From Myxococcales bacterium (GTDB lineage Bacteria; Myxococcota_A; Polyangia; Palsa-1104; JAEUJZ01), in the NCBI GenBank assembly GCA_016794465.1, contig JAEUKA010000028.1, forward strand, positions 64,001-124,050: DNA of 60,050 bases. The letters are read 5' to 3'. The translations under genes were made by a program, and so were the position numbers. Of the stretch, positions 1 through 17,200 are shown one piece after another (the first letter of the stretch is position 1; each line of letters starts with the position of its first letter). The notes under the pieces are model-generated. The model worked only from the letters and a program-made list of their open reading frames with translations, was not told the DNA's origin and made no database searches.

Positions 1-2654
1 TTGCACAGACACTGGCCACCACCGCAGCGGTCCGCCGTCGAGCTACTGCAAGCCCCCATGCAGCCACCGCAGTGATTGAAGTCTGTCTGCGGATCGATAC
101 ACATCTTCAAGGTCGGGCAGCAGGTTCCCTTTCCGGAGTCTGCACCGGCTCCGCACTGCTCCATTCCGTCGTTCGCAGGAGTCATCGAGACATTCCCACT
201 CACGCACTTGTTGTCGAGGCTGTCACACAGCTCGGGAGCTCCATCACGGGCCTGCATGCTGGGCGGGGGAATCGCCGGCCAGACATTGCGATTGCTGTCG
301 TCACAGTCATTGCAGTACAGCAAGTTGGCGTCGAAAGCGAGAGGGTTGTCTGTATCCTTGCAGCCCGTGCACGACATGTATTTGTCGGTATCAGAGTCTT
401 TTTCATCAGCTGGCAGTGCGCCACTACAGTCGTCGTCAAAGCCATTGCAAAGCTCAGCGACTGGATCGGTCTGCGCGGTACAGACCAAGTACTTGTCCTT
501 CTCTGGGAAGCCCGGCACACGCAGCGCCCAGAATGGATTCTCTTTGGTGCGCACACATCCCAAGACGGTTCCGGCCTTGCACCGAGCACTCAGCGCAGAG
601 ACAGTCACACCACACGCGCGCCCCTTCTCTGCCAGGAATGTACCCGTAGCATCATCGAGGCTGCCGTTGCAGTCATCATCCACCGGATTCAGCGCATCAC
701 AGCTCTGCGGCTTGGGCTGATTGGCACCAAAGCAGCGCGCCGTAAACACCGAGCTGCCATCAAAAGCCGGACAAGCCTTCACCGCTTTCGGATCGATCGT
801 TGAAGTCGGAGTGGTTGAAGTACAGACACAGCGCCCCGAGAAAAATCCCGAGCCGTCCTTCTGTCCACACATGCCCACTGTCGAGTCCGCGCATGACGTA
901 GTCCGCTTCGAGCTATCGCTGCCCGTCTCGACCAGCCGCCCTCCCATCGAGTCCGGATTCAGCTCATCAATCAGACCATCACAGTCATCATCACGACCGT
1001 TGCACTTCTCGGTCGCGAACGGATGGACATCGAAGTTGGCATCATCACAGTCACTGGCAGAGTCGTAGCCATCCTTGTCGCGATCAAAGCTACAGACATC
1101 AACCATGCCATCGCAGTCGTGATCCTTTCCATCGCAGGCAATCGGTCCACCGGGAAACGCAGTCGGGTCAGAGTCATTGCAGTCAAACGGCTTCCCAATC
1201 ACCACGCAGCCGGGAAAGTTCCTTGGGAATCCGTCTCCATCTACATCGCAAGCTGCCGTCGGACAACCCGAGCGCGACAGCAGGGGATCGTTGTCACAGC
1301 TGGTGTTCTGCGCCATGCCACTCGGATCGTTGTTGCGACACAGACCACGCATCGCCGACAGGACATTGAAGCCCCGCGAGCTTGCATCCAGCACTCCGTA
1401 CTTGGTTGCTGTTCCGACGGTGGTGGCCGATCCTGGGAAGACTCCGCGATCGTTGTCATCGCAGTCCAGCGGTCGCCCCGACTTCTTGTAGTTGATGGTG
1501 GGGCAGGTCTGTCCGGCCAGGATTTCGGAGCGCTGAAAGCCATCTCCATCCAGATCGCAAGGAACACAGCCCGCCTGCGGACGACCATCACAGGCCCAGT
1601 CTTTGATCACACCATCATCTGGATCGCAGAGCTTCTGCGCGTTGGGATGCACGCGGGAGTCGGTGTCATCACAGTCGCGCAGCTTGGAGTCCGGATTGTT
1701 TGGCGAGTATCCATCACAGTCATCGTCGGTAAAGCAGTCGACATTCAGTCCGGTACAGTCAAAGTCAAACGTCGTGTCACAGCGCTTCGGCTGACAGAGT
1801 GACTCATCGGCCCGCTTGCTATGATTGGTCGCGCAGCTGGTGACATCGGTACACTGACAGCAGTTGCGCGGACGGGGGTTGCCATGGAAGCGGTTCTTAT
1901 CGGTGTCATCACAGTCACTTCCCTCCGGATCACCGTCGGCGTCTTTGTCTTCACAGGCGCGCGGCTCCCCAGCACAGGTCAGATCAAACAGCTCCAGCGG
2001 CGGCAGCATGGTGGTGCTGGGAGGATGCTCGGGACGGAGCCTTACGTTGCAAGAGGAGCTAGCCAACGGATGGATGTCAAAGCTGCGCAGCCGCACCGGC
2101 TCCAGATCCCCAGGAGGCGGATCACTGTCGACGCAGTCAAGAACCTCTGGCTGATCTCGGTACAGATCGGCGGCCTCTGCATTCTGCGCCGGCCACGCCA
2201 CTGCACTCGGAAAGTGATCGCCATCCTCATCAAAAGCAGGAGGAACCGCCAGCAGCTTGGCTTCCACTTCTTGATACGCACCGACCTCCAGAATTCGCGC
2301 AAAGAAGTACTGCGGCTCGGGATTCCCTTTCTGCGGCAGCGACTCGACATTGGCGACGTTGGCCGCCAGCACCTGCACAAGGTATCGACCATGCTGGGAA
2401 AACGGCAGCGCCACTCGCACCGGTTCCGTTGCCAGCAAGCGCTTTTCGCTCAGACTCTGGACTCCCGAAAGGAAGACGACCTTACGGGTTGCCCGATCCT
2501 GAATCTTGATGATGTAGCTCTGCAGTCGTACTCCATCAGGAGCGCGGATCGACAGCATCACACCGTCGGGAACACTGCATGAACCCAGCAGTAAAAGGAG
2601 AAGCAGCGCCCACAGACTGTGGAAAGTTCCCCTCCGATTGCGTAGCCAGCTCAT
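1..2654 (-). CDS. Large secreted lipoprotein with many Cys-rich MopE-like 'putative metal-binding' repeats. 5' partial: the ORF runs off the left edge of the window.
   Basis: I translated the minus strand by hand from the ATG at 2654, which sits 7 nt after an aggagg RBS. The N-terminus is MSWLRNRRGTFHSLWALLLLLLLGSCS, a signal peptide with a lipobox. Then come more than 15 tandem units of the form CDDxDxxxxPxAxExC(D/N)GxDxDCDG. No stop occurs before position 1, so the ORF is absent from the supplied track. It is the last gene of the T6SS/vgrG cargo operon. Confidence 0.6.
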   Translation of the reverse strand, partial: MSWLRNRRGTFHSLWALLLLLLLGSCSVPDGVMLSIRAPDGVRLQSYIIKIQDRATRKVVFLSGVQSLSEKRLLATEPVRVALPFSQHGRYLVQVLAANVANVESLPQKGNPEPQYFFARILEVGAYQEVEAKLLAVPPAFDEDGDHFPSAVAWPAQNAEAADLYRDQPEVLDCVDSDPPPGDLEPVRLRSFDIHPLASSSCNVRLRPEHPPSTTMLPPLELFDLTCAGEPRACEDKDADGDPEGSDCDDTDKNRFHGNPRPRNCCQCTDVTSCATNHSKRADESLCQPKRCDTTFDFDCTGLNVDCFTDDDCDGYSPNNPDSKLRDCDDTDSRVHPNAQKLCDPDDGVIKDWACDGRPQAGCVPCDLDGDGFQRSEILAGQTCPTINYKKSGRPLDCDDNDRGVFPGSATTVGTATKYGVLDASSRGFNVLSAMRGLCRNNDPSGMAQNTSCDNDPLLSRSGCPTAACDVDGDGFPRNFPGCVVIGKPFDCNDSDPTAFPGGPIACDGKDHDCDGMVDVCSFDRDKDGYDSASDCDDANFDVHPFATEKCNGRDDDCDGLIDELNPDSMGGRLVETGSDSSKRTTSCADSTVGMCGQKDGSGFFSGRCVCTSTTPTSTIDPKAVKACPAFDGSSVFTARCFGANQPKPQSCDALNPVDDDCNGSLDDATGTFLAEKGRACGVTVSALSARCKAGTVLGCVRTKENPFWALRVPGFPEKDKYLVCTAQTDPVAELCNGFDDDCSGALPADEKDSDTDKYMSCTGCKDTDNPLAFDANLLYCNDCDDSNRNVWPAIPPPSMQARDGAPELCDSLDNKCVSGNVSMTPANDGMEQCGAGADSGKGTCCPTLKMCIDPQTDFNHCGGCMGACSSSTADRCGGGQCLC

Positions 2655-2726: not shown

Positions 2727-3536
2727 CTATCTCGGACTCGTGCGCCGAGGAATCTTTCCTACCGCCGGCAGTGGATTGGTCGTTCGCTCAGCAGGCGGCA
2801 AGGCCACACTGCGAAGTCGCCGTAGCTCGGTCAGCAGGATCTGCTGCTCTACCTGCGCCAAGCTGCTGTCACGCGTTCGCTGGAGCCGGATCTCGACCAG
2901 CTCTGCCAGCAGCGGTGCCAACGCCGTCGACAGCTCTTTCTCTAACCCCGCTGCACTGACCGGCGCTTCGCTCGGTCTTTGGGGCAGCAGCGTGGCACTG
3001 ATGCCGCGTGAAAGAGAGGACAGCGTTGCCTCGATCCGTCCCAGCAGATCTTCCATCAGCTGCATCCGGTCTTGCATTCCCTGCACCTGCATCATCAGGC
3101 GATCGACATCATGCGACAGTCCAGAGACATTGCGCACCGTCTGAGACTGCGCCTTAAACAGCTCCTCCGAGAGCCTCTGTTGTCCATCCTGCAACTGCTT
3201 GAGCAGCTCTCCCAGCTTCTGTTCAATGTTCCCAGTGGCTGCAATCCCAGCCGGCTCTGGGATGACTGGCTGTGGTGCTGCGGGCTCGGGAGTCACCACC
3301 ACTGCGGGAGCAGGAGTCTCTGTCCGCTCTACGGCTGGGGACTCCTCTGCCTTTTCTACGGACTCGCCAAGAGGTGACTCTGTTCCCACCAAGATCCGCT
3401 GACTGCGAGAGGAGCTGGCCACCCGACGGGTAGCCGCCGTCCGACTGGTAGTCGCCCGTCTCCGCGTGGTTACGGCGGGCTCGGCGGGAGTCTCCGGTGG
3501 TGTCACTGCTGGTGTCTTGCGAACCCTGGTTGCCAA
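2727..3536 (-). CDS. Hypothetical protein with a Pro/Thr/Arg-rich N-terminus and a coiled-coil C-terminal half
   Basis: The ORF has a TTG start with aggag 8 nt upstream, immediately after the DUF4280 stop. The N-terminal third is low complexity and the rest is predicted helical (LGELLKQLQDGQQRLSEELF...). It is co-oriented with the T6SS operon. Confidence 0.4.
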   Translation of the reverse strand: MATRVRKTPAVTPPETPAEPAVTTRRRATTSRTAATRRVASSSRSQRILVGTESPLGESVEKAEESPAVERTETPAPAVVVTPEPAAPQPVIPEPAGIAATGNIEQKLGELLKQLQDGQQRLSEELFKAQSQTVRNVSGLSHDVDRLMMQVQGMQDRMQLMEDLLGRIEATLSSLSRGISATLLPQRPSEAPVSAAGLEKELSTALAPLLAELVEIRLQRTRDSSLAQVEQQILLTELRRLRSVALPPAERTTNPLPAVGKIPRRTSPR

Positions 3537-3545
3537 TTTGCGCTC

Positions 3546-3932
3546 CTAAGGAGTCATCACCGTGGGCACACCGGGAGGCAGAATCTCAATGACCCCCGCC
3601 CACATGCACATCAGCTTTGCACTATTATTCAAGATCGGCATATTGCCCAGCAGCACGGTCGGTGCGCCGACAATCCACGGTGCCGGAGTGTTGGGAATAC
3701 ACGGCATCGGAGTCAGCACGCCCAGCGCTGCCGCCGTCGCTGCGGCTACCATCGGATTGGCCAGAGACTGACACATTCCGAACGGCATAATGTTCATAAA
3801 TGGCTTGCTGTCCATGATGTTGGCAACCGGCTGCGGAGACATCACCCGATTCAGCGGCAACACCACCAGCGAGCTCGGCGCCACACCAAACGAACACTTG
3901 AGCATTGCTCCCATACAGACTGCGTTGGCCAT
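3546..3932 (-). CDS. DUF4280 family PAAR-like protein (T6SS spike-sharpening or cargo adaptor)
   Basis: The sequence MANAVCMGAMLKCSFGVAPSSLVVLP...IMPFGMCQSLANPMVAAATAAALGVLTPMPC...MCMWAGVIEI matches the DUF4280 signature. It lies two genes downstream of vgrG. Confidence 0.7.
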   Translation of the reverse strand: MANAVCMGAMLKCSFGVAPSSLVVLPLNRVMSPQPVANIMDSKPFMNIMPFGMCQSLANPMVAAATAAALGVLTPMPCIPNTPAPWIVGAPTVLLGNMPILNNSAKLMCMWAGVIEILPPGVPTVMTP

Positions 3933-5113
3933 TATTTGCCTCTTGAAGGAGTGTTCTGCGCGGTCGGCAGAGTGCCAATGTTGGGCGGCTCCAGGATCAT
4001 TCCGTGACGCGGTGGTGGCGGTGGCGGCGGACCCTTTTTCCCGCGCTTTCCAGACTCTGCTGCCGACGCTGCCTTGGCCGCAGCCGGCGCAGCTTCTGCT
4101 TTGGCCGCCAAGGCCTCTTTTACCTGCGGAGCTTCCGGGGGCTTAGGAATCTCTGGCGCTTGCGGAGCCTCTGGCGCTTGTGGAATCTCTGGAACCTGTG
4201 GAGCTTCCGGAGCTGTCGGCAGCTCTGGTGCAGCCGGCAGCTCGGGAGCCTTCCACATTGCGATCACCGCAGGCACTACCGCATCAACAGCCTTCTTCCG
4301 CGCAACATCCATCAGACCCCGCAGCGCCGACTGCTTCGCTGCTTGGGCCGCTTGCTGTTCCAGGCTCGGCGTCGACGGAGGCGTGGCACTCTGTAGCGGT
4401 CTTCCTTTGTCATCAAACTGCTCCGGCGTTCCCTGCGGCGCCCCCTCTTCATACCGAGCGCGCTTCTGCAGCTTGCCGTTTGGATGATAGCTCAGCGACT
4501 CTCCATGCAGCTTTCCGGCCTGATACAGACTGGCTTCCCGCAGCTTGCCATCCGGAAAGTACTCCTGCACCACGCCATGAAGCAGTCCGTCTTGATACAG
4601 CTCGCGACGAACAATCACGCCATGCTGGCCGAAATAGACAGCTTCTCCATGCCTCTTATCATTCTTATAGTTCGCAGAGAGAATCGGCGCACCGTCGGCA
4701 CCATAGATGATCCCGATGCCGTGCTTCTTGCCCTTCACATACTGCTGCTGGCTGACCATCTGACCGTTCTCATAGGTCACCATGTCGCCGGAAAGCTCAC
4801 CACCAACATAGGAAGCGAGCAGCTCCGATCGACCCTGCTCATCAAAGCGCCGCAGCAGTCCGCTTAACTTGCCGGCATGAAAGTGCGCTCTCTGCACGAC
4901 CTTTCCGCTCGGAAAGTACTCTATCGATTCCCCTTCCAGCTGGTCGTCCTGGAAGCTGGACTTTTGCGCGAGCTTGCCCGCGACAAAGAAGGAAAACTCC
5001 CCTTCCTTTTTGCCATCGCGCAGCACACCTCGCAGGCTGACGTTTCCGTCCTCATCATGCTCAACGTACTCGACTGCTTCCGGTGCTGCGGACTGTCTTG
5101 GCTGCTCGCTCAT
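3932..5113 (-). CDS. MORN-repeat (YwqK-like) protein with a C-terminal Pro-rich periodic tail and a PPPPPPP tract. Candidate T6SS cargo or adaptor.
   Basis: Repeated motifs of the form G.L.G....Y..NG.L......Y..GK.HG are MORN/YwqK repeats. The C-terminus reads APELPAAPELPTAPEAPQVPEIPQAPEAPQAPEIP, encoded by about 9-nt periodic DNA at roughly 4090-4270, followed by KKGPPPPPPPRHG. The track start is TTG at 5125, which overlaps the vgrG stop. An in-frame ATG at 5113 is more likely. Confidence 0.65.
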   Translation of the reverse strand: MSEQPRQSAAPEAVEYVEHDEDGNVSLRGVLRDGKKEGEFSFFVAGKLAQKSSFQDDQLEGESIEYFPSGKVVQRAHFHAGKLSGLLRRFDEQGRSELLASYVGGELSGDMVTYENGQMVSQQQYVKGKKHGIGIIYGADGAPILSANYKNDKRHGEAVYFGQHGVIVRRELYQDGLLHGVVQEYFPDGKLREASLYQAGKLHGESLSYHPNGKLQKRARYEEGAPQGTPEQFDDKGRPLQSATPPSTPSLEQQAAQAAKQSALRGLMDVARKKAVDAVVPAVIAMWKAPELPAAPELPTAPEAPQVPEIPQAPEAPQAPEIPKPPEAPQVKEALAAKAEAAPAAAKAASAAESGKRGKKGPPPPPPPRHGMILEPPNIGTLPTAQNTPSRGK

Positions 5114-5121
5114 GTGCTCTC

Positions 5122-7158
5122 TCAATTCAGCTTCACAAGGCCACCCTTGATCGCCGCCATTGCCCCACCTTCCAGCTTCGCCATCGCCGAAGCCTTCACA
5201 TCAATGTTGACACCTTCCAGCTTCATTCCGACCCCGGCCTTGAGATCGAAGTTCACGGCCCCTTCCTGCTTCATGTTGGCGCCCGCCTTCAGCTTCATAT
5301 CGGCGCCCGCCTTCAGATCCACAGCTGCTGCCGCCTCAGCCTTGATGCCCTTCTTCGACTTGATCTTGATGTCGCCATCGACCTCGATGGTGAGGTTTCC
5401 TTTGACGGTCAAGATGTAGTCCTTATCGACTGTGTGGCTGAACTTGGCCTTGTTCGCGTGCTTCTCATCCTTGTCAACAGAGACGGTCCGCTTGCCTTTT
5501 ACAGAGTGCTTTTCATCACCCTTATCGACCGAGATCGTGCGATTCCCCTTTTTGACCGTGAGCAGCTCATCACCCTCGGTCACTTCGACCTCGCGGTTCT
5601 TTTTGACCACAGTCTTGTCGTTGTTGTCGATCTTGGCGCTGCGGTCGTTCTTGATGTCAGTCTTGCAGTCGTTGTCGATCTTGGCGGTGCGGTCGTGCTT
5701 GACCTCGATGTTCATGTCCTTCTGGGCATGAATGTAGATCTCTTCGGAGTCCTTCTTGTCCTCCAGCCGGATCTCGTTGAAGCCACCGCCGCCCTTGCTG
5801 GTACGACTCTTGGTGGTGCTCTTGGTCTGGTTGTCGGGAAGCGGATAGGGAACGGTCTGCTCAGCGTTGTAGACCGCGCCGGTAATCAGTGGTCGATCCG
5901 GATTCCCATCGATGAACGTAATCACAACTTCCTGACCGATGCGCGGCAAAAAGAACGTTCCGTAGCCCTTCCCTGCCCAGTGCTGCGTGACCCGCACCCA
6001 GCACGAGCTGTTCTCATCTTTCTTGCCTTTGCGATCCCACGGAAACTGCACTTTGACGCGACCGTACTTGTCGGTCCAGATCTCCTCACCGGACTTCCCA
6101 ACCACCACCGCAGTCTGGCTTCCAATCGCCACTTGCCGTCGAGTCCGCCGCATAGGACGGAACACCACACTCGCTGGCAGCGCTTCGAGAGTGTTGCTGT
6201 AGTTGCCTCGATCCGCGCGATGACTGACCGAGCGAATCACGTACTCCTGATTGAGATCGGCTCGATCATGCTTGGTCAGCTTGAACTTGCCACCGGCCAC
6301 AAAGCCGCGACAGTTGCTACTGGCACGCAGCACTTTTTGAGCATGCTCCATCGCCTCAATGCGCAGCTTGACGAGCTTCTCTCCCTCGTTCTTTTTGGCG
6401 TAGTTGCCGGGATGATCGTAGACCACCAAGGCCGGACTCCCCCCACCGGTCTTGACGAACAGATCGGTCGAAGGAATCTCGAAGTTGTAGTCCGTCAGCG
6501 CATAACCAGTCGTCACCAGCGTCTCTTCAAACGAACAGTCACGCAGACAGTTGGGAGTGTCATTCAGTCCCATCTCCACCTCTGCCGAGCCGGTACACGT
6601 GGCATAACCATCGCTGTCATCCGCCAGCACCATCAGGTGCTTTCCGTCGCTGTGCTCGAAGTAGTAGAAGATTCCTTCGTCTTCCATGAGGCGACTGACA
6701 AAGTCGAAGCTCGACTCCTGATACTGCACGCAGTACTCGCGCTTGGCGTACGTTCCCTTCAGACTCTTTTTGAAGTCTTTGAGTCCCAGATCCGAAAAGA
6801 CCTCTTCGATGATCTCGGGCACACTCTTGTTCTGAAAGATTCGATTGTCGGCGTGCAGGGTCAACAGCCACAGCCACGGTCGCAGCTCCGCCACATAGAG
6901 AGTGTGCTTGGGATCATAGCCAGACTCGACAAAGCGCGTCACCAGTCCACAGATGTAGCGCTTCGACTTGTCGGGCAGCACGATCGTGATCGTGACCGCC
7001 TTTCCCATCAGCTTCTTGAAGTCGAGCTTGCGATCTTTCGATAGGAACTGAAGCGTGTATAGGAATGGCGAAGAGAGCTCTTCCTGTCCAGAAAAGGACT
7101 CCAGTTCCAACGCATCCGCAGCAGGAGTTGCTGCACTTAAAAAGTCATGATCGCTCAC
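5122..7158 (-). CDS. vgrG: Type VI secretion spike protein VgrG (TssI)
   Basis: 678 aa with gp27-like and gp5-like domains: FLPRIGQEVVITFIDGNPDRPLITGAVYN, then C-terminal beta-helix repeats. There is no C-terminal effector extension. Confidence 0.9.
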   Translation of the reverse strand: MSDHDFLSAATPAADALELESFSGQEELSSPFLYTLQFLSKDRKLDFKKLMGKAVTITIVLPDKSKRYICGLVTRFVESGYDPKHTLYVAELRPWLWLLTLHADNRIFQNKSVPEIIEEVFSDLGLKDFKKSLKGTYAKREYCVQYQESSFDFVSRLMEDEGIFYYFEHSDGKHLMVLADDSDGYATCTGSAEVEMGLNDTPNCLRDCSFEETLVTTGYALTDYNFEIPSTDLFVKTGGGSPALVVYDHPGNYAKKNEGEKLVKLRIEAMEHAQKVLRASSNCRGFVAGGKFKLTKHDRADLNQEYVIRSVSHRADRGNYSNTLEALPASVVFRPMRRTRRQVAIGSQTAVVVGKSGEEIWTDKYGRVKVQFPWDRKGKKDENSSCWVRVTQHWAGKGYGTFFLPRIGQEVVITFIDGNPDRPLITGAVYNAEQTVPYPLPDNQTKSTTKSRTSKGGGGFNEIRLEDKKDSEEIYIHAQKDMNIEVKHDRTAKIDNDCKTDIKNDRSAKIDNNDKTVVKKNREVEVTEGDELLTVKKGNRTISVDKGDEKHSVKGKRTVSVDKDEKHANKAKFSHTVDKDYILTVKGNLTIEVDGDIKIKSKKGIKAEAAAAVDLKAGADMKLKAGANMKQEGAVNFDLKAGVGMKLEGVNIDVKASAMAKLEGGAMAAIKGGLVKLN

Positions 7159-8246
7159 GGTGCAGCCCTCAGTGGTTCATCGCTGTACCTGGCCACTGCG
7201 CCCAGAGCAACCCTTGGCATGCCACGCAGCTTGGCGTTGGTGGTCAAAAAGGAAGTCAACCCGAGCACGGGCTGGGCCGACGCAGGGGACTTCGCAGCAG
7301 GAGTCGCAAACGACAAGCGCGCACGTGGAATTTCCTCTGCCTTGATCAGCAGAGAGACAAAGATGTCGTATTCCGGACCGACATAGTAGCGAGCCAGCTG
7401 AATCAGCGCCGTCAGTCCAGACTGTCCGGGCAGAAAGTCCAGATAGCGCTCCCAGGGCAGCGGCCCAATCTCTAGCTCGATTCCTGCTTGCGCATCCCAG
7501 ATCATGCTGCCGATCATCGCCTGTCCACCGAGCATCTGGTTCTGACCGGACAGACCGATCTTGGTCCACTGCTCTTCCTCAATCGGACGCATCGCCCCGC
7601 GCAGCTGATGACAGACAATCTTGACCTGAAAATGATCACTGAGCAGAGTCTCTAACCCGATCGCATCCCGAGGCTGCTTGCTCAAAAGTCCGGTGTAGCG
7701 CAGCAGGGCCCGATCGGGAATCTTGAGCCGATTCTGGAGTCCCTCGGTCAGCATTCCCGAGAGTCCATACAGAAAGCGCGTAAAGTAGTGTTCATCGGGG
7801 GAAGACCACTCTGTTCCCAGCCGACAGCTCCGCCGCACGCGATACAGCAAGGACACCAAGCGATGATCAAAAATGTCCAGGAAGTCACGCAGCGCAAAGT
7901 CCCGCTCAGCGCTGCGCTCTAGGACCCACTCCGTCAGCTCGTGCGGCAGGGGTCCATGGGCGCCACCGAGTCCGAGCATACTCACTGTCACCGTCGGAAC
8001 CGGCTTGTCCCCTGATGGCTTTTCAATTGCCACCACATCACTGGGTGGGAAGGCGAGTGAAAAGGAGGATCGGAAGCGAACCGCCTCGGCACTCGGATCT
8101 CCCCCTTCGCCTAACGGAACCGAGTCCGGAGCAAGCATCTCCAGCAGTCGGATCAGCTGGAAGAAGTTGAAGCGCTGCGGATCGGCGAGAAGTTCATCGA
8201 TTACAGAAGGCTGCGGGAGCCCGCTAGCGGTGGCCATTTCTTCCAC
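7155..8246 (-). CDS. tssG: T6SS baseplate subunit TssG
   Basis: The N-terminal RFNFFQLIRLLE signature is present. The gene sits between tssF and vgrG and overlaps both. Confidence 0.85.
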   Translation of the reverse strand: MEEMATASGLPQPSVIDELLADPQRFNFFQLIRLLEMLAPDSVPLGEGGDPSAEAVRFRSSFSLAFPPSDVVAIEKPSGDKPVPTVTVSMLGLGGAHGPLPHELTEWVLERSAERDFALRDFLDIFDHRLVSLLYRVRRSCRLGTEWSSPDEHYFTRFLYGLSGMLTEGLQNRLKIPDRALLRYTGLLSKQPRDAIGLETLLSDHFQVKIVCHQLRGAMRPIEEEQWTKIGLSGQNQMLGGQAMIGSMIWDAQAGIELEIGPLPWERYLDFLPGQSGLTALIQLARYYVGPEYDIFVSLLIKAEEIPRARLSFATPAAKSPASAQPVLGLTSFLTTNAKLRGMPRVALGAVARYSDEPLRAAP

Positions 8247-10009
8247 GCCTCCTGTCGCTGACGGCTACGCACCACCAGCATCGTAAAAGAGTTTACGGCC
8301 GTATACAGACCAAAGAAGCGACTCAAGACCGCCGACATCATGAGCGCGCTGTGACCGACATACAGTGCCTCATCGAACGTAATCTGGACTTCCTGACCAT
8401 GCACAAAGCCTCGCCACGCATCGCGTCCGGCTTGCAGCGTCTTGGGAACACACTGCAGCTCGGTGATTCCCAAGATCTGATTTTCCGTCGCTGTGGTCGG
8501 GCTCATTCGATACAGTCGGAGGATCTCGCGCAGGGCATCCCGACTCTCTCTGCCACCGATCAGGGACAAGTGATTCAGCGAAAGATGAGACACCAGCTGC
8601 CACAGCGCTGCGCCCCCAAGAGGTGGAGTGATCGGCTCGGTCGGCTTGGACAGACACGTCACCGCTTTGACCGGCGCGGCATCCTCCAGCTGTAGTCGCG
8701 CGCGGGCCGGCATCTGCGCGGCCAGATCGCGGTTGGTACAGAGCGTATGCGCAAACACCGTCTGCGTCGCTGGCTGGGTCGGCTTGAAGCGCAGATCGAC
8801 AAACGACAGATAGGTATCGCAGCCCGTCATATCAGACCGTCCGGTAGGCCGCCGCTGCGCGTAGTAGAACGCCTGATGGTCCGCACCACTTGCGGGATGG
8901 TTGAAGGAAAAGAACGGCGCGATGTTGTGGCTGCTGTTCGGATCGGCACTCATCGATACCTTGTCGATCGAGTGAATCTCGCAGGTCTTCTCTTCTCGCT
9001 TGTCGGCGACCAGCTGGTATTCCGGCAGCTTCTGGGTTAGGCGAATCGGCTCTGCGGTCTTGGGAAACAGGTTGATGATCGGCGCGCAGCCAAGCATGAA
9101 CGTACTGCGGTTGACAGCGATGGAGCGAGGCGGCACTTCGGACAGCAGAATCAGGATGTCCGCCGTCTTTTTGGCCAGCTGAATGCGCGGCAGCTCAATG
9201 TCAAAAAATAGGAACTTCTGCGGAAAGACAAAGTACTCCTGAAGCAGTCGATACGCTGGATGCGCATACTCTGGAGAGGTCAGAAGGGAGTCTTCCGGAT
9301 CGAGTCCTACCGGTCGCAGCGCCTGCGGACCTTGGTACTGAACCTCGGGTCGTCCATCGGGCAACAGAGCCACGCCCACCGTCGAGGAGATCAGCAGATC
9401 GTAGATCGCGGCAGCGACCTCTGCCGAGGAGTTGATGAACACCCGAATGCTGCGCAGATCCAGCTCGCCGAAGCTCTCTGCTTGGCACTCCAGCTTGATC
9501 CGCAGCATCGCAATCCCTTTGGGATACGCATCCAGATAGGGATACCGGTCCGTCGCTTCGATCTGGGCCGACACAATCGACACCGGCCACAGCGTGATCG
9601 GAGAGCCGGTGCGGAACCGGCACAGCGCGCCGGTATCCGTCTGGGTAAACAGCTTCGCTCCTTTGGGAACCGTGAAGCCACCCAGCGGAAGTCCTTGCTC
9701 GGAATCGACATCGAAGTGAGCAATCGACATCGACGGCACGGTCTGAAGCAGGTGCGGATACAGACAGTCCAAAATGGAGGTAGAGAGGAGCGGAAAGTCA
9801 GCGTCGAGTCGCTGCTGTAGCCGCGCCGTCAAAAACGCAAAGCTCTCGATCAGTCGCTCGACATGTGGATCGGCGCAGGCCTCTGCCGACAGATCCAGTC
9901 GTGCCGCAATCTTGGGATACTTGCGCGCAAACTCGGCGCCCATTCCGCGCAGATATTGTAGCTCGCGCTGGTAGGCGCGCAGCAGCTCGTCCTTGGCTTC
10001 ACTACTCAT
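8201..10009 (-). CDS. tssF: T6SS baseplate subunit TssF
   Basis: 602 aa starting ELLRAYQRELQYLRGMGAEFARKYPKIAARL, the typical TssF N-terminus. Confidence 0.9.
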   Translation of the reverse strand: MSSEAKDELLRAYQRELQYLRGMGAEFARKYPKIAARLDLSAEACADPHVERLIESFAFLTARLQQRLDADFPLLSTSILDCLYPHLLQTVPSMSIAHFDVDSEQGLPLGGFTVPKGAKLFTQTDTGALCRFRTGSPITLWPVSIVSAQIEATDRYPYLDAYPKGIAMLRIKLECQAESFGELDLRSIRVFINSSAEVAAAIYDLLISSTVGVALLPDGRPEVQYQGPQALRPVGLDPEDSLLTSPEYAHPAYRLLQEYFVFPQKFLFFDIELPRIQLAKKTADILILLSEVPPRSIAVNRSTFMLGCAPIINLFPKTAEPIRLTQKLPEYQLVADKREEKTCEIHSIDKVSMSADPNSSHNIAPFFSFNHPASGADHQAFYYAQRRPTGRSDMTGCDTYLSFVDLRFKPTQPATQTVFAHTLCTNRDLAAQMPARARLQLEDAAPVKAVTCLSKPTEPITPPLGGAALWQLVSHLSLNHLSLIGGRESRDALREILRLYRMSPTTATENQILGITELQCVPKTLQAGRDAWRGFVHGQEVQITFDEALYVGHSALMMSAVLSRFFGLYTAVNSFTMLVVRSRQRQEAWKKWPPLAGSRSLL

Positions 10010-10478
10010 CGCGCTGGTGCTCCAAAAGACGAGGGCTCGCAGTGACTCGGAATGACACCGGCTCGCGCAGCTGTTCCATCACCAAAGTTCCCGTGATGTT
10101 CAGAATCAGACGCGACTCCGTTTGGACAAACTGGACAATTGTGACGCGTGGATGATGCAGGCGTGGCTCAAACTGCTCGACGGTCTGAGTCAAGAGTGAA
10201 GTCAAGTGTCGCATCGACTGCGGATCGAACGGATTGACCCAGAGCAGATCGGTAGCCCCATAATCAATCACAGAGCGCTCCCGCCCGAGCAGCTCGTGAG
10301 AAGGCAGTCCAGTGCGGGTGTTCAGGAGTCGTGAGACTTCCTCGCGAACAGACTTCACCAGCTCTGGATAGGACAGAGTACGCAGCGGTACCGGCTCGCG
10401 CGGCTGCTCTGGCTTGCGATCAGAGAGACGCTCAAACAGGGGCACCGCAGCGACGTGCTGTCGTGATGGAAGCGGCAT
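10002..10478 (-). CDS. tssE: T6SS baseplate subunit TssE (gp25-like)
   Basis: 158 aa GPW/gp25-like protein (PLFERLSD...LLNTR). It is translationally coupled to tssF by an 8-nt overlap. Confidence 0.85.
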   Translation of the reverse strand: MPLPSRQHVAAVPLFERLSDRKPEQPREPVPLRTLSYPELVKSVREEVSRLLNTRTGLPSHELLGRERSVIDYGATDLLWVNPFDPQSMRHLTSLLTQTVEQFEPRLHHPRVTIVQFVQTESRLILNITGTLVMEQLREPVSFRVTASPRLLEHQRDE

Positions 10479-10502: not shown

Positions 10503-10991
10503 CTACCCGCCCTTGTTCTCTTCGATCGAGAAGAAGGCGGAGTTCTTGCCCTTGTTGCCACCCGGCTGCTTCTGCAGCTGCTGACCGTAATCCCAGGTGA
10601 TCTTCTTGTAGCTGAAGGTCACTGTCTCGATCGGCTGGTCACCACCACCACCGACACTCACGCTGGTGATGATGCAGCTGTCGAACGTATAGGTCAGGTA
10701 CTCCATCGGCGCGCCGGCAGCGTCTGCCTTCCAGACGTGGATCTTCATCGACTTGATGTCTTCGCCACCGCAGCACTTGAGGTTCAGCGTCGGCGAAGCC
10801 AGGTCAGCGTGCTTGCTCACCGTAAAGTCCTGATGAACACAGCGACCCGAGGCACGGCTGGTGTTCGAGGGTCCGCTCGTCAGCGGCATCGACACGCCAT
10901 GGTTATAGGACAAGAGCTCGATCATGTCCTTGCCCTGGGCAGAGGTCGACTCTCCCTTGATTCCTTCAATCTCCCAAAAGATGTTCTGCAT
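10503..10991 (-). CDS. hcp: Hcp (TssD) tube protein
   Basis: 162 aa. The sequence FWEIEGIKGEST...HGVSMP...SFSYKKITWDY...FSIEENKGG is the Hcp fold signature. Confidence 0.9.
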   Translation of the reverse strand: MQNIFWEIEGIKGESTSAQGKDMIELLSYNHGVSMPLTSGPSNTSRASGRCVHQDFTVSKHADLASPTLNLKCCGGEDIKSMKIHVWKADAAGAPMEYLTYTFDSCIITSVSVGGGGDQPIETVTFSYKKITWDYGQQLQKQPGGNKGKNSAFFSIEENKGG

Positions 10992-11051: not shown

Positions 11052-12518
11052 TCAACCAGCGGCAGGCGGTGGAAGCTCTGCCACCAAGCGAATCGAAGCA
11101 GTCAGCTCGTTGAGCTGAAAGTGCGGCTTTAGGAATGCCACCGCACGGTACACACCCGGCTTGCCCGGAACATCGAACACATCGACGCGGGCCTCGCGCA
11201 GCGGGTACTTGGCCTTGGTATCCTGACCGGCATCATCACGCAGCAGGATGTAGCTACTCATCCAGTTGTTCAGAAAGTTCTGAACGTTCTCGCGTGTTTG
11301 GAAGCTACCGATCTTGTCGCGCATGATCGCCTTCAGGTAGTGCGCAAACCGCGACGAAGCGAGCAGGTACGGAAGCTGCGAAGACAGCGACGCGTTGGCA
11401 TTGGCCTGCGGCGTGTTGTAGGTCTTCGGCTTGTTGGTCGTCTGGCCACCAAAGAACGCGGCGTAGTCGGTGTCCTTGCAGTGACAGAGCGCGACAAAGC
11501 CCAGATCCGACAGCTCCTTTTCCCGACGATCCGTGATCGCGATCTCGGTCGGACACTTGAGGGCGATGTCTCCCTCATCGGTCTTGAAGGTGTGCGCCGG
11601 CAGGCCTTGCACGATGCCGCCTCCTTCCACACCTCGGATCGCCGCCGTCCACTTGTGCAGGGCAAACGCATTGGTGATGCGCTGACCGAGCACGTACGCG
11701 GCGTTGCTCCACAGATACTTTCCGTGATCTTTTCCGTCGGTGTCTTCCTCGAAGCGGAACTCCTCTACCGGCACCGTCTTGCTTCCGTACGGAAGTCGCC
11801 CCAGCACGCGCGGCAGCGTCAGCGCCACATAGCGGGAGTCCTCTGACTCACGGAACGAGCGCCAGGTGATCAGCTCCGAGCTCTCGAACAGCTTGGACAG
11901 ATCACGCGGATTGCCAAGATCGGTGAAGCTCTCGAGATCGAACAGCTTCGGACTGGCAGCGCTTAGGAACGGTGCATGCGCAGCGGCGGCAACATTGGAG
12001 ATCTTCCCGAGCAGCGCGATGTCCTGCGGATGGCGAGTGAACTCGTAGTCACCGACCAAGCAGCCATAGGGATGGCCACCGAACGTGCCGAACTCCTCTT
12101 CATACACCTTCTTGAACAGAGCGCTCTGATCAAACTCGGAAGCCTTCTCGAGATCGTTCAGCAGCTCCTTCTTGGTCGCGTGGATGACCCGCAGCTTCAG
12201 AGAGGTGCTCGTCTCGGTGTTCATCACCAGATAGTTCAGACCGCGCCACGATCCTTCCAGCTTCTGGAAGCGCTCGTCGTGCATGATCGCGTTGACCTGC
12301 TGCGTCAGCACTTCATCAATGTGCGCAATCTTGTCGAGTACTACCTTCGCAAGATCCGCGCTCGCAGACACCTTGTCCGGATCGACCTGATTCACAAACT
12401 CGCCGATGAGCGTACGAGAGTGCGCGATCTGCAGCTCATCACGCGCCATCTTGCCATCGCGGATCAGGTTGTCGAGGACATCCACTCCTGTCTTGGTAGT
12501 CGTTTCGTTTTCAGCCAC
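11052..12518 (-). CDS. tssC: T6SS contractile sheath large subunit TssC
   Basis: 488 aa of the VipB family, adjacent to tssB. Confidence 0.9.
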   Translation of the reverse strand: MAENETTTKTGVDVLDNLIRDGKMARDELQIAHSRTLIGEFVNQVDPDKVSASADLAKVVLDKIAHIDEVLTQQVNAIMHDERFQKLEGSWRGLNYLVMNTETSTSLKLRVIHATKKELLNDLEKASEFDQSALFKKVYEEEFGTFGGHPYGCLVGDYEFTRHPQDIALLGKISNVAAAAHAPFLSAASPKLFDLESFTDLGNPRDLSKLFESSELITWRSFRESEDSRYVALTLPRVLGRLPYGSKTVPVEEFRFEEDTDGKDHGKYLWSNAAYVLGQRITNAFALHKWTAAIRGVEGGGIVQGLPAHTFKTDEGDIALKCPTEIAITDRREKELSDLGFVALCHCKDTDYAAFFGGQTTNKPKTYNTPQANANASLSSQLPYLLASSRFAHYLKAIMRDKIGSFQTRENVQNFLNNWMSSYILLRDDAGQDTKAKYPLREARVDVFDVPGKPGVYRAVAFLKPHFQLNELTASIRLVAELPPPAAG

Positions 12519-12530
12519 GGCAACCTCCCC

Positions 12531-13034
12531 TTAATTTGCAGTCGCGCTCTTCGCGGCCAGCGCCTTGACGGCGCCAAACTTCTCTTTGTCCCCAAGCAGC
12601 TTCTGTAGCTGCCCCTGAAGATCTTCGTTTCCATCCAGCTTGGTCAGCAGATCGACCAGGCGCTGCCGCATCTCGAGCAGCTCGCGCAGCTGCGGAACCG
12701 CCTTCGCGATCGCAGTCGGATGGAAGTCATCAATGTGGCGGAAGGTAAGCTCAACGCCCAGGTTCCCTTCCTTCTTGATGTGATTGGGCACCGCGTACTT
12801 GAGCTTGGGCGCAATGTTCGCGAGCACTTGGTTGTAGTTGTCGCGATCAATCTGCGTAAACTTGCGCTCCTTGAACCTGGGCAGCGCATCCTGTTGCCCT
12901 GCCAGATCGGCGAGAATGCCAACGACGAAGGGCAACTCCTTCATCTGGATTGCGCCGCCAATTTCCACATCATAGGTGATCTGGACCCGTGGCGGCCTGA
13001 CACGGTCGAGTTTGTGCTGGGTACTCTCAGACAT
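12531..13034 (-). CDS. tssB: T6SS contractile sheath small subunit TssB
   Basis: 167 aa of the VipA family (RVQITYDVEIGGA...ELPFVVGILADL). Confidence 0.9.
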   Translation of the reverse strand: MSESTQHKLDRVRPPRVQITYDVEIGGAIQMKELPFVVGILADLAGQQDALPRFKERKFTQIDRDNYNQVLANIAPKLKYAVPNHIKKEGNLGVELTFRHIDDFHPTAIAKAVPQLRELLEMRQRLVDLLTKLDGNEDLQGQLQKLLGDKEKFGAVKALAAKSATAN

Positions 13035-13137: not shown

Positions 13138-14217
13138 CTATTGCGGCGACTTCACCCCCAGCAGTGCATAGATCCCCTGGCGATCGGCTCCCCCTGCCAC
13201 AAGCTCATTGAGGAGCTGGATCAGATCCATGTTACCCCAGGCGATGGCACGTTTTACAAGATACGGAACCGGACTGTGGGGCTCTGTACGCTGCAGGTAT
13301 TCTGCTGCTTCAGCAAGTCGTTGATATGCTTGGGTCCGACTGCGAATCGGACCGGTGACTGTCTCCTCTTTGGCGTTCATCGTGGCTTTCGCCTCCGCTT
13401 CATCCTGCACAGCTGAGCTGCTTACGCCCTCAAGCTGAGCCGCATCCGATCGCACTTGATCCGGGCTAACTTCCACCGGGGTGTACTGTGCAATCAGGGT
13501 CTTGATGTCATGAATCAAGCTGCGGAGCTGTCGCAGCATCGCAGGCTGATCAGGAAGCTGGGCAATGACTCCGTCCTCTAGCTCTTGTGTCGCAGCATCT
13601 AGCTCAGTCAGCTCATGAAACAGCGTGCTGTAGAAGTGCGGTCTGGTCGCTGCTGCGGCCCCGAGCACACTCGCGGGCAGAATCTCTCCACCACCACTTG
13701 GTACTTTCTCATTGCGAAGCGCGCGCTCCCAATCAATCCAGGTCAGCGCCGCCTTTTCTCCGATCGGATCGGTCAGCGGAATCTCTTTGAGCCGACCAGA
13801 GACACGATGCGACAAGTACTCCAGCGGAGCCAAGCGATAGGAAGACTCTCCCTCTTCGATCAGCGGATAGAGCGTGTTCCAGAATCGCACCATCAGCTGA
13901 TGACAGAGCCGGACTCCCAACGTAAGCCCAGGCACTCCGTACAGCTTCAGCCACGCCTCACAGAGCCAGACTGCGATCTGCAGATCTTTGCTCCGCTCGA
14001 CGAGCGCCTTCTGTCCAAGCTGCGCTACCTTGCTCCAGTCCGCACGCTTGAGCTTGGTCTGCCAGACCCCTTGCGGAAGACTCTCATCATCTTCCCGACG
14101 TGCCTCACCAATCGCATCGTACGTCCCTTCATAGCGAAGCCACTCGCCAGCCGGCTCGCGCTCCGAGATCGGTGCAAGGAGTGTCTCTAGATCGATGGGC
14201 GGCTGCTCAGACATCAC
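13138..14217 (-). CDS. tssA: T6SS protein TssA (ImpA N-terminal domain)
   Basis: ImpA_N motifs are present (EWLRYEGTYDAIGEARREDD...LPQGVWQ...KRADW). The gene is in cluster context. Confidence 0.8.
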   Translation of the reverse strand: MMSEQPPIDLETLLAPISEREPAGEWLRYEGTYDAIGEARREDDESLPQGVWQTKLKRADWSKVAQLGQKALVERSKDLQIAVWLCEAWLKLYGVPGLTLGVRLCHQLMVRFWNTLYPLIEEGESSYRLAPLEYLSHRVSGRLKEIPLTDPIGEKAALTWIDWERALRNEKVPSGGGEILPASVLGAAAATRPHFYSTLFHELTELDAATQELEDGVIAQLPDQPAMLRQLRSLIHDIKTLIAQYTPVEVSPDQVRSDAAQLEGVSSSAVQDEAEAKATMNAKEETVTGPIRSRTQAYQRLAEAAEYLQRTEPHSPVPYLVKRAIAWGNMDLIQLLNELVAGGADRQGIYALLGVKSPQ

Positions 14218-14223
14218 GACTCC

Positions 14224-17200
14224 TCACTGTCCATTCCGTCCCCGCGTCAGCGGAGCCAGCGTCGGCCAATCTGCCGGGATCACCAGCAGCTCTTTGCTCT
14301 CTGCCGGGTTGAGAACGAGCCGCACAAACACCACCGCCTTGTTGTAAAGGAACGACATCTTGGCGGCTCCACTGGGAGTGCTTCCTTTGTTGGTGTAATA
14401 GGAATCAGGCAGCAGGCGGACTCTGCCGGTGTGCTTCCGTTCGGTGATGTCGACCATAAACTTCAAGACGTGCGGCTGCCGATCGAGCGACTTCCGCAGA
14501 TCCGTTTGCGAGGCGCGGAACATCCGAATGATGCGAACCAGACCCCACACCCCGGCAAACTCAAACGAGATGGTGTCATTGGAATCAACAGTGGCACCGC
14601 GCGGCTGTCCCGTCGGAGCCGGAACATACGGACCGTCCTTGGCCCAGCGCATCGACAGCTTGACGCGATCCCCAAGCTGCCAGGACCCCTGACCATCCTC
14701 GACCTTCTGATCGCCGGTCGAGAATCCCCACTCTGCAATCTGCTGACCGTTGATCTCGTTGCCTTTGTTGATGCGGTAATCGACCACCACGTTGTAGCGG
14801 GCGAGATCACCGCGATCACCAAGCAGCGGCGCAAAGAACGGACGGACTTCCCGCAGGGCCTGTAGGAAGGTGTTGACCTCGCGTCCGACTTCCGCAGAGC
14901 CACCGAGTGTCTCGCGCCGTCCCACGTAGGCATCGTACTGGCGAATGAACTCGTCGTACTCTTGGAAGAAGCCCCGGATGTCACGCGGCAGCGCATCCGG
15001 ATCATCGAGTGACTGCGAGTTGCGCGTAAACGGAAACTTGCCCGCGAGATCTTGGTTGAAGCGTCGCGCCAGGTGATCGTAAAGCTCCAGAATTTTTTCG
15101 GCTGCGAACACCAAGCAGCGCTTGCGCACCGAGTCATGAAGTCGCGCCTTGGTCTGCAGGAAGAAGTCGGTGTTGTCACCAGTCTGTCGCGGCAGCTTGT
15201 CGAGACAGTTTTCCGGCGTCACAGTGAGCAGCGTGGTATCGAAAAAAGACTCCATCTCTTTGACAGAGTTGCCCGGAGTCATGCGCTCGAAGTACTCCAG
15301 CTGATTGACAATGTTGCGCCACTTTCCGACGAGCGGATCGTCACTCCGCGCGCTGGTAAGACCATCCAGCAGAGACACCGGAACCTTGGCATAGTCGCGA
15401 CCCCAGCCCTTGATGCGATTGCGCTGGGTCTTGATGTACTGCGACAGTGCATCAGCATCTTCGACATCAAACGCAGACAGGACGGGCGGCTTCTCTCCGC
15501 GCCAGCTCGCCAGCTTGCTGGAGACGCGATACATCTCTTCGCGCTCTGGAAGTAGATCGATGCGGCGCAAGATCTCGCGTGAGTCTTCCTGCAGCTGCTG
15601 ATACAGCTCGGAGTGCGGCGCTTTCAGGGACAGCCGATCGTACGTCTCCAGAATCTGCCGCAGTACCGTCGAGACACGCTTGAGATCTCCGACCTCACTG
15701 CTCAGCTCATCTTGCAGCGCGTTGACATCGCCGGTGAATCGCAGCACCCGCTCCTCGCGCCGCGCTTGGGAAACCAGCGCCGGCATATTCTGTCCCAGTC
15801 GCTCCAGCGCTGTACTCTTGACCACTTCACGAATGTGCCGATAGACCTGTCCCAGTCGGTCGCGGGTATAGGTGTCGTAGGACTCTGCAAACGCGGTGGC
15901 TTGTCGCAGCAGATCGTCATTCCAGACCACTCGATAGGAGCCTTCGGAGTTCGGCGCGTGCGACTTTTCTAGGCTCTGCTGCACAAAGGAAAGCGATAGG
16001 AATGTCTCTAGGTTGGCCTTCAGATCGACCACTGCCTGCGAGATCACCAGACGGTGTTTTTCATTGTCGCGCTGCAAGATCAATCCCATCGCTGGCAGCG
16101 CAACTTCCAGCAGACGCCGCCGCAGCTGCTGATGCGACTGTAGCCACTCCTGACGCAGCTCATCACTCATCCGGCCATCGGGAGAGAAGTGCCGCAGCGC
16201 CGCCAGAATCTCTGTCATCGGCTCGCCCAGATCGAGCGATTCCTTTGACAGCCACTGCAGCTCTGATCTTCCCAGATCACGCTCTAGGCGAATCAGAACA
16301 TCGCGCAGCTCCGTCAGTACCGGAAGGTCCGCGCCGCCTCCTTCGCTCTCTGCTTTGAGCCGACTGATGTGCGCCAAGATCTCATCTGTCTCGATCTGAA
16401 TCGCGTTGTCGATGAACAAGCGGCGATGCAGCGCTTTGGTGATCAGCTTGGCGCGCGCTTGGACTTTCGGATTGACCAGCGACATGTCAAAGGAGCGGCT
16501 GGTCGCGTTGGCCAGCGCCTCCTGATACAGCTCGGCATTGCGCAGGAAGACCGGCTGCAGCTCGACGCCAAAGACATACTTCACCAGCGGGACTACGGTA
16601 TCGAAGCGCTTGTGGTGTTCGCTGCCCAGGCGGTTGTAGGTATCGACGTTCTGCACAAACTCCAGGTACGCGCGCGACAGCTCACGCAGCTCCTGAAACT
16701 CTGGCATGTTCTGCAGCGCTTGAATTTGAACCGTTCTGGAGGTGAGTCGTTCACCACTTCCGGCGGTCGCAGGCCGTCCTGCCCAAGCCTCTCCAGCCGG
16801 TGGTGGCTCGTCGCTGGGTGGCGGCGCACTGAGATCCCCTTCCAGTCCCAAGACCTGCTTGGCTTTGAGCTGCAGACCCTCATGCAGACCGCCCAGCACC
16901 ACGCGCTCGAACGACCTCCGCATTGCTTCCTGAACATCATCATCGAGCGAGCTAAGCCAAGACGAAGGAAGCCGCAGACTGAGCAGCCGACTGCTCGAGA
17001 CATTCCCAATCGCGGCCAGCAGCTCCTGGGTCTGCTGCGCAAAGCGATCCTTGTCCTGCGCCACAGAGAGCGTGGTTTCTACCGGCACTTTGTCCAGGAA
17101 GCCCATCACCGCCCGAACATCGCGACTCAGGTTGGCGTACGCGGACCACAGCAATAGTACGCTCACCAAAACCGAGACGCCCAGACCGACCTTGATCAAA

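Follow-up and report, generated by a model that had tools for sequence, protein, structure and literature searches.

In this study, we analysed a 60,050-nucleotide stretch of the genome of a Myxococcales bacterium (contig JAEUKA010000028.1, positions 64,001 to 124,050; hereafter the window), in which a type VI secretion system (T6SS) locus is followed by the spike gene vgrG, a gene for a MORN-repeat protein with a long proline-rich tail, and a gene for a DUF4280 PAAR-like protein. We have high confidence that these three genes are a spike trio of the type found in the H3-T6SS of Pseudomonas aeruginosa. It is likely, moreover, that the MORN protein is a TseF-family passenger of this spike, and its tail may be an extended polyproline-II (PPII) arm with a docking motif at its end. 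Known biology accounts for most of the locus; what is new in it is the tail, which is specific to one clade.

The three adjacent gene families of the window are the same as those of VgrG3 (PA2373), TseF (PA2374) and PA2375 in P. aeruginosa. Along its full length the window VgrG shares 42% identity with VgrG3, and the DUF4280 protein is 61% identical to PA2375, which is the DUF4280 protein of the H3 locus (PMC7376260). The MORN protein matches TseF both in BLASTP (E 4e-18, 30% identity over 154 residues) and in hhalign (probability 99.5%, E 2e-22). TseF is a protein of 178 aa with MORN motifs whose gene adjoins vgrG3; it has been seen in supernatants, its release depends on the H3-T6SS, VgrG3 is retained by GST-TseF in a pull-down, and the tseF-vgrG-PAAR synteny was published in 2017 (PMC5379069, Supplementary Fig. 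2 for the synteny). Its sequence was retrieved from a metagenome contig (L023) via both published primers: a metagenome scan with the 18-mer tseF primer gave at least 120 stretches, mostly chance matches, and L023 was confirmed with the second primer. TseF was also confirmed in an annotated P. aeruginosa record, NZ_CP137515.1 (L211 8994-10061). This record, deposited as a 91-kb 'plasmid', is probably a fragment of the chromosome; its tssH, M91 peptidase gene, vgrG3, tseF and DUF4280 gene look like chromosomal H3-T6SS genes.

The same gene order was found in distant bacteria. In four of four diverse contexts (Duganella, Minicystis, a Blastocatellia metagenome-assembled genome (MAG) and a distant metagenome relative) vgrG is followed by a gene for a protein of 200-450 aa and then by a DUF4280 gene, and the four middle proteins align to residues 1-245 of the window protein, its MORN domain included, at 30-50% identity. 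A census was made of the best 80 of 362 genome loci, in 65 of which 3 kb or more of sequence precedes the DUF4280 gene. A co-directional vgrG lies immediately upstream in 35 of these 65, and a TseF-like gene stands between vgrG and the DUF4280 gene in 32 of the 35 (14 from Myxococcota, 16 from Burkholderiales and relatives, one from Melioribacteraceae and one from Pyrinomonadaceae); the trio is also present in Blastocatellia. An earlier note on this DNA, made from its letters without database searches, had called the genes an unusual cargo set for a T6SS spike locus. That description fails for the first three of them, because the trio, and with it the MORN and DUF4280 pair downstream of vgrG, recurs in other genomes (32 of 35 loci) and is homologous to the vgrG3-tseF-PA2375 set. 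Closest to the window are six metagenome contigs with an identical DUF4280 protein and 94-98.6% DNA identity over 10 kb. When one genome per species was scanned, the loci nearest to that of the window proved to be from uncultured Myxococcales/Polyangia MAGs (DUF4280 identity 88-93%), and DUF4280 proteins of 72-89% identity occur in Polyangium, Minicystis, Duganella, Blastocatellia, Desulfobacterales and others.

The MORN gene starts at an ATG at 5113 (MSEQ...), which is preceded by GAGAG and is the start used in every gene call and orthologue (MSE...). A TTG listed at 5125 is an improbable start, and only from this TTG, not from the likelier ATG, would the gene overlap the vgrG stop as the earlier note had described. 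Residues 10-240 of the protein were modelled by AlphaFold2 (AF2) as a beta-hairpin sheet with a predicted local distance difference test (pLDDT) score above 90, and the best Foldseek matches of the model are the MORN1 structures 6t4d, 6t69 and 6t68, followed by junctophilin. Most of the shorter relatives checked consist of a MORN domain and an amphipathic C-terminal helix of 16-20 residues, e.g., AILDRLHKLVRGS and SFFDKVVNKLAGG, with ARWRWWWTRLAEP in TseF. The helix that follows the MORN domain in the window protein is the counterpart of this element: its equivalent stretch is KQSALRGLMDVARKK, after which come about 125 additional residues, and in our alignment A4 the helix sits over AILDRLHKLVR, SFFDKVVNKLA and, in TseF, ARWRWWWTRLA. 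A WH2 reading of the helix core KQSALRGLMDVARKKAV was tried and rejected, as the core has neither the right spacing nor an LKKV, and tail-less relatives have the helix as well. Protein searches did not enlarge the family: the whole MORN protein gave only 8 matches, and with alignment A4 as the query, generic long MORN_2 proteins crowded the results, probably due to the low-complexity tail dominating the word index.

Both TseF and the window protein lack a signal peptide and have an amphipathic helix after the MORN domain. However, TseF has about 6 hairpins in its 178 aa and a Trp-rich end (RWRWWW), whereas the window protein has about 10 hairpins and a proline-rich tail of 150 residues. The ligand reported for TseF is the Pseudomonas quinolone signal (PQS), with a role in outer-membrane vesicle binding and iron uptake (PMC5379069). 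It is unlikely that this role transfers to the window protein.

The C-terminal extension of about 150 residues consists of the helix, 14 X-Pro-Z triplets, an Ala/Lys-rich stretch, a run of seven prolines (Pro7) and a conserved terminal motif; its sequence is exactly as first quoted, KKGPPPPPPPRHG included. In the tract formed by the triplets (residues 289-330), proline stands at every third residue. The periodicity of the DNA that had been pointed out is real, with Tandem Repeats Finder (TRF) reporting periods of 9, 18 and 36 nt at 4122-4228; within the tract, the DNA has a self-identity of 0.49 (lag 9), 0.65 (lag 18) and 0.66 (lag 36), as compared with about 0.3 in the MORN domain. The period of 9 nt stands as a sub-period, but the basic unit is an 18-nt hexapeptide repeat (xPE-xPQ). 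X-Pro-Z tracts form PPII rods, in which the rise is 3.1 Å per residue, and the tract of the window protein is probably a rod of about 13 nm (42 residues x 3.1 Å). In NCBIfam it weakly matches the proline-rich part of BAC, a streptococcal IgA-binding protein, and it resembles the proline-rich rods of group B streptococcal Bac and of TonB in its pattern of one proline every three residues and alternating polar or charged ones. Rods of this type are thought to be extended PPII spacers. However, those of Bac and TonB span the cell wall or the periplasm, whereas the protein that carries the rod in the window is T6SS-associated and made in the cytoplasm, and Pro7 and a conserved peptide come after the rod. 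A second tract with proline at every third residue (APTPPAVPAAPTPP...; 66 residues) was seen at 30269-30466 on the plus strand, in the C-terminal part of an OmpA/TSP_3 protein (gene at 28637-30511, plus strand), i.e., tracts of the X-Pro-Z type serve as spacers elsewhere in this genome, in an OmpA-family protein.

Pro7 is the sole run of at least five prolines among the long open reading frames (ORFs) of the window, and a run of six to eight prolines is kept in all members of the clade, with its position shifted in locus L010. Runs of proline codons stall ribosomes and need elongation factor P (EF-P); Pro7 sits 25 codons before the coupled start of the DUF4280 gene, and a link between EF-P activity and cap expression is therefore conceivable. 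The same tail architecture is present in loci L131-L136 and in protein P0002, and a diverged form in L137 and L010, where Ala/Gly-rich sequence replaces the X-Pro-Z tract while the proline runs, the LEPP motif and PRGK remain; R-x-x-Φ-Φ-LEPP-x-Φ-G-(T/S)-LP is retained in these two at 45-50% overall identity. When the tail was searched against 1.84 billion representative proteins, only two true close orthologues (cluster representatives) were found, the other matches being generic proline repeats such as a lipoprotein linker (P0158). The tail is confined to one clade of uncultured Polyangia. It is also under purifying selection, with a ratio of nonsynonymous to synonymous change (pN/pS) of 0.17-0.19, compared with 0.15-0.17 in the MORN domain. 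A PEP-CTERM/MYXO-CTERM or sortase-like signal was considered for the terminus and rejected: LEPPNIGTLP is followed by the ten polar residues TAQNTPSRGK, and there is no hydrophobic segment.

The suggestion that the periodic repeat might be variable in length was not borne out. The MORN protein has the same length, 393 aa, in the window, L001, L002, L005 and L006 (94-98.6% DNA identity), and the number of hexapeptides, 4-8, differs between species only. As its length is fixed among strains, the tract is not a fast, contingency-type repeat. The length-variable gene of this locus is, instead, the one downstream of the DUF4280 gene, which encodes a protein of 269 aa. Its 24-nt unit for PEPAVVVT (window 3219-3350, minus strand) is present in one good copy in the window and L005, three copies in L002 and L006 and four in L003, strains that are 1.4-6% divergent in DNA; TRF did not detect this repeat in the window, and the variation is visible by comparison of strains.

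The 269-aa protein has no signal peptide and no Pfam, PHROG or PADLOC family, and a profile search of the Protein Data Bank (PDB) gave only weak matches of the spectrin-repeat type; as its matches to coiled-coil segments are weak too, the coiled-coil character given to it in the earlier note is putative. Its gene is present in every tail-bearing locus that was checked (L001-L006, L010 and L131-L137) and in no tail-less one, and the protein is the best local candidate for a partner or cargo. The next gene, for a MopE-repeat lipoprotein, shows the same co-occurrence with the tail in the loci checked. The MopE-repeat protein runs to 1348 aa in sister contigs (L001) and has an N-terminus with a signal and a lipobox-like site, LLGSC. 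As such an N-terminus points to Sec export rather than to T6SS firing, the inclusion of this protein among the T6SS cargo in the earlier note is unlikely to be right; it is probably an envelope protein exported by Sec. Nothing useful came from scanning the MORN, DUF4280 and 269-aa proteins with PHROG and PADLOC, or the MopE-repeat protein with PADLOC.

The other two members of the trio are typical spike components. VgrG contains Phage_GPD (E 4e-94), Phage_base_V and Gp5_trimer_C domains in Pfam and scores 621 bits against TIGR03361, the TssI model, for which the cut-off is 186. The DUF4280 protein is a stand-alone PAAR-like cap without a toxin extension, as had been noted, with PF14107 spanning residues 5-120 of its 128. 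Four conserved cysteines are the published criterion for DUF4280 PAAR-like proteins (PMC5014421), and C6, C13, C54 and C109 are invariant, with C78 nearly so, in 40 DUF4280 homologues. The gene has pN = 0 against 13-16 synonymous changes. The protein matches the IglG model NF041248 at E 3e-17, which is under the cut-off of that model. A comparison of the DUF4280 family profile with PDB sequences gave no match to a solved PAAR protein at the sequence level, and the AF2 model has a mean pLDDT of 34, with an input alignment that is too uniform; the putative PAAR-like conical beta fold of the protein is taken from the literature. Like the window cap, IglG of Francisella (PMC5014421) has PF14107, four conserved cysteines, a predicted position on VgrG and a partner protein. 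However, IglG binds its partner IglF through an N-terminal helical extension and belongs to the atypical Francisella T6SS, whereas the window cap is bare and accompanies a canonical TssA-M set. DUF4280 proteins 67-72% identical to that of the window were also seen in Firmicutes (Herbivorax, Wukongibacter and Syntrophomonadaceae MAGs) and in a MAG labelled Methanoperedens (L153, L206, L146, L175, L200 and L181), with vgrG nearby in none of them. The archaeal case may be a binning error; the presence of DUF4280 in Gram-positives is a published puzzle (PMC5349215).

The cap gene is tied to the MORN gene at the level of translation. The stop codon of the latter and the start codon of the former overlap by 1 nt (TAATG at 3932), and AGAGG within the RG codons at the end of the MORN gene is the Shine-Dalgarno sequence of the DUF4280 gene. 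Since most of the loci checked (L132-L187) carry a GAGG Shine-Dalgarno sequence for the DUF4280 ATG within their RG(x) codons, and the two genes in them overlap or are a few bases apart, translational coupling is widespread, and the conserved RG(x) end of TseF-like proteins largely reflects a constraint on the nucleotides. The last 32 codons of the window MORN gene show one synonymous change where about four are expected, a hint of further RNA-level constraint that is not significant (Poisson ~0.09) and is not claimed here.

From the homologies, synteny, architecture, selection and restricted tail distribution described above, we infer how the module might work. VgrG would trimerise to form the spike, and the DUF4280 protein would cap and sharpen it, with the four cysteines as a putative metal site. 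The MORN protein may bind VgrG through its MORN sheet, its short amphipathic helix or both, and would leave the cell on the spike when the sheath contracts; by analogy with TseF, we hold with moderate confidence that it is spike-bound and secreted. Coupling would keep the synthesis of the MORN protein and of the cap linked. The tail, in turn, may act as an arm, extended and non-globular, on which a short docking motif is displayed away from the spike, a role in which our confidence is low to moderate. The partner of the arm might be a clade-specific protein, the helical 269-aa protein being the obvious candidate, or a protein of the target cell.

Several points weigh against this account. MORN repeats can be aligned in several registers, so that the 30% identity to TseF comes partly from the repeat motif, and orthology to TseF rests largely on synteny. 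Secretion and VgrG binding are extrapolated from one study of P. aeruginosa, and the functional conclusions on TseF have been termed contentious by a 2025 review. In P. aeruginosa, moreover, the DUF4280 gene is convergent to tseF and not coupled to it, whereas the two genes overlap and are coupled in the window. The other 30 of the 65 census loci, mainly from Acidobacteriota with some from Firmicutes, have neither vgrG nor a MORN gene adjacent; with about half of the close DUF4280 loci lacking it, the MORN protein is not obligatory for DUF4280 function. As for the tail, the region after the helix is modelled with a pLDDT below 50 and its PPII geometry is deduced from the residues, and the co-occurrence of the tail with the 269-aa and MopE genes, all within one clade, cannot be told apart from shared ancestry.

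The MORN protein could, alternatively, be a non-secreted adaptor or chaperone that remains inside the producing cell and only helps in loading or stabilising the DUF4280 cap, or a cargo, on VgrG. A tight linkage that spans phyla and a translational coupling to the cap gene would suit an accessory of the machine better than a niche-specific effector, and pairs of a chaperone and a PAAR-like protein have been described (PMC13584744). In particular, the DUF2169 chaperone with the DUF4150 (PIPY) cap is likewise an accessory gene with a non-canonical cap near vgrG (PMC11883445, PMC13584744), and DUF4123 and DUF1795 adaptors, along with those of the DUF2169 family, are further parallels. However, the DUF2169 and DUF4150 folds and families are unrelated to the MORN and DUF4280 proteins of the window, for which a chaperone role is putative. 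It also suits a chaperone that PQS binding is unlikely to be a general function of the TseF family; to our knowledge, most taxa with TseF-like genes do not make PQS, a signal that is essentially confined to Pseudomonas and has no known occurrence in myxobacteria. On the other hand, TseF appears in supernatants in an H3-T6SS-dependent manner, many DUF4280 loci do without a MORN gene, and an extended arm of 150 residues is easier to explain on a delivered protein, and we regard a chaperone that stays behind as unlikely. An antitoxin or immunity protein of the YwqK type, paired with a toxin, is barely credible. The MORN_2 architecture is common to YwqK, and YwqK of the YwqJK module (COG2849/MORN_2) shares with the window protein both the repeat family and the automatic annotation; the Prokaryotic Genome Annotation Pipeline (PGAP) even names P. 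aeruginosa TseF a 'toxin-antitoxin system YwqK family antitoxin', and JGI does likewise for generic MORN_2 matches. However, the name has been transferred from the repeat family and not from function. YwqK has a toxin neighbour, YwqJ, whereas no toxin domain was found in the genes that flank the window protein, whose neighbours are vgrG and DUF4280 genes in 32 of 35 loci, and TseF binds VgrG3 and is released by the T6SS. The antitoxin alternative, which the earlier note had raised against its own proposal, thus fails for want of a toxin partner.

The tail has prompted two other explanations. As polyproline tracts are ligands of eukaryotic domains, the protein had been proposed to be a eukaryote-directed effector, in which the six to eight prolines and their PxxPxR-like context would bind profilin, SH3 or EVH1-type domains after delivery and the X-Pro-Z rod would be FH1-like. 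Six to eight prolines followed by R(K/H/Q) are indeed kept through the clade, even where other parts of the tail have diverged, Pro7 is the only polyproline run in the 60-kb window, and the tail is under purifying selection. Two related MAGs appear from their record titles to derive from membrane bioreactors, which are habitats rich in protists. However, the conserved PPPPPPPR(H/K), with its PxxPxR-type context, is a match at the sequence level that is not specific, and the most conserved element of the tail, LEPPxΦG(T/S)LP, is not a known eukaryotic ligand motif. Pfam finds MORN repeats only, with no WH2, FH2 or similar actin- or membrane-directed domain, the helix is not of the WH2 kind and has its equivalent in tail-less relatives, and X-Pro-Z tracts are plain spacers in envelope proteins of the same genome and in a lipoprotein. 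Targeting of eukaryotes by the tail is possible, with the proline run as its one positive sign, and an effector of this kind seems to us quite unlikely. Its fullest version, in which each VgrG spike would carry up to three MORN copies whose PPII rods and Pro7/LEPP peptides engage profilin-, SH3- or EVH1-like or other targets in protist grazers or prey, is a little less probable again. It is also improbable, and somewhat more so, that the tail is neutral low-complexity sequence left by repeat expansion and tolerated as disorder. The low AF2 confidence, the free variation of repeat number and of the Ala-rich segment between species, and the evident functionality of tail-less relatives would agree with such an origin, but a neutral tail would not be expected to show a pN/pS equal to that of the folded domain, an identical length in five strains, and a proline run and LEPP motif that are kept at 45-50% overall identity. 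A spike passenger with a docking arm remains the explanation that we favour.

The genes of the module, from vgrG to the MopE gene, follow directly after a canonical T6SS core set (Table 1). The description of the region as a T6SS spike locus was confirmed, since tssK, tssL, tssM, tssA, tssB, tssC, hcp, tssE, tssF and tssG all lie upstream, share the strand and are spaced by minimal gaps or overlap, and every feature described in the earlier note was found on the minus strand. The overlap of tssG and vgrG is 4 nt, the vgrG stop (TGA at 5122-5124) is separated from the MORN gene by 8 nt, and 9 nt separate the DUF4280 gene from the 269-aa gene; 72 nt precede the MopE gene. No terminator-like sites above chance were found between these genes. 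In Duganella and P. aeruginosa, tssH lies between tssG and vgrG, whereas the ORF list has no entry of ClpV/TssH size either for the part of the window beyond 10 kb or for the module region. The clpV and M91 peptidase genes that adjoin vgrG3 in P. aeruginosa are likewise not found beside the window vgrG.

Table 1. Features of the spike module and of the T6SS core set, with positions in the window
Feature	Position	Strand	Basis or remark
MopE-repeat Cys-rich lipoprotein, runs off the window	3-2654	minus	PF11617, E 6e-24
269-aa clade-specific protein; Arg-rich N-terminus, PEPA repeats, helical C-terminal half	2727-3536	minus	no Pfam family
Stand-alone DUF4280 PAAR-like spike cap, 128 aa	3546-3932	minus	PF14107, E 6.7e-33
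TseF-family MORN_2 protein, 393 aa	3932-5113	minus	MORN_2, E 1.1e-20 (Pfam)
Terminal motif RHGMILEPPNIGTLP (residues 369-383), variable stretch and PSRGK end	3935-4009	minus	conservation
Pro7 tract, residues 362-368, mixed CCG/CCA codons	4010-4030	minus	sequence
Ala/Lys/Glu-rich segment, residues 331-361	4031-4123	minus	most variable between species in length and sequence
X-Pro-Z tract, residues 289-330, 14 triplets (A/V/I/L)P(E/Q/K/A/T)	4124-4249	minus	TRF, autocorrelation
Post-MORN helix, residues 251-286, core KQSALRGLMDVARKKAV	4256-4363	minus	AF2, pLDDT ~60
MORN domain, residues ~10-240, single-layer beta sheet of ~20 strands	4394-5086	minus	AF2
vgrG (tssI), 678 aa, C-terminus GGLVKLN, no effector extension	5122-7158	minus	Pfam, TIGR03361
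tssG	7155-8246	minus	Pfam
tssF	8201-10009	minus	Pfam
tssE	10002-10478	minus	Pfam
hcp	10503-10991	minus	Pfam
tssC	11052-12518	minus	Pfam
tssB	12531-13034	minus	Pfam
tssA	13138-14217	minus	Pfam
tssM	14224-18336	minus	Pfam
Periplasmic-binding-protein/ANF-receptor-like gene, between tssL and tssM	18361-19812	minus	Pfam
TPR gene, between tssL and tssM	19812-20876	minus	Pfam
tssL	20966-21925	minus	Pfam
tssK	21940-23280	minus	Pfam

Other features of the window lie outside this locus. A gene at 24608-26725 on the minus strand encodes a protein of 705 aa that is rich in Ala, Lys and Gln, apparently all-helical and without a Pfam family, in a region with a raised G+C of 0.63-0.65 and a strong AT skew of -0.2 to -0.3. 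Further along are a phage-type integrase (40056-41267), a 1104-aa SIR2_2-domain protein (54639-57953) and a 543-aa HD-domain protein (58015-59646), with a low G+C of 0.43-0.52 at 53-54 kb and 58-60 kb near the SIR2_2 and HD genes; this region may be an island of mobile or defence genes that has nothing to do with the T6SS.

The recurrence of the trio bears on the disputed function of TseF. TseF-like MORN proteins emerge as a widespread companion of VgrG and DUF4280 proteins, found in four phyla, rather than as an iron effector specific to Pseudomonas, which suggests a structural role at the spike. In the Polyangia clade, such a spike accessory can gain a long C-terminal extension, as VgrG, PAAR and Hcp proteins do, and a proline rod that ends in a short linear motif is an unusual type of extension for a T6SS component. 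If a partner of the motif were found, it would define a new mode of cargo recruitment or a new class of target. Were the arm to target eukaryotes, it would be the first effector extension in the TseF family, analogous to those of the 'evolved' VgrG and PAAR proteins, and would give the T6SSs of myxobacteria an anti-eukaryotic role.

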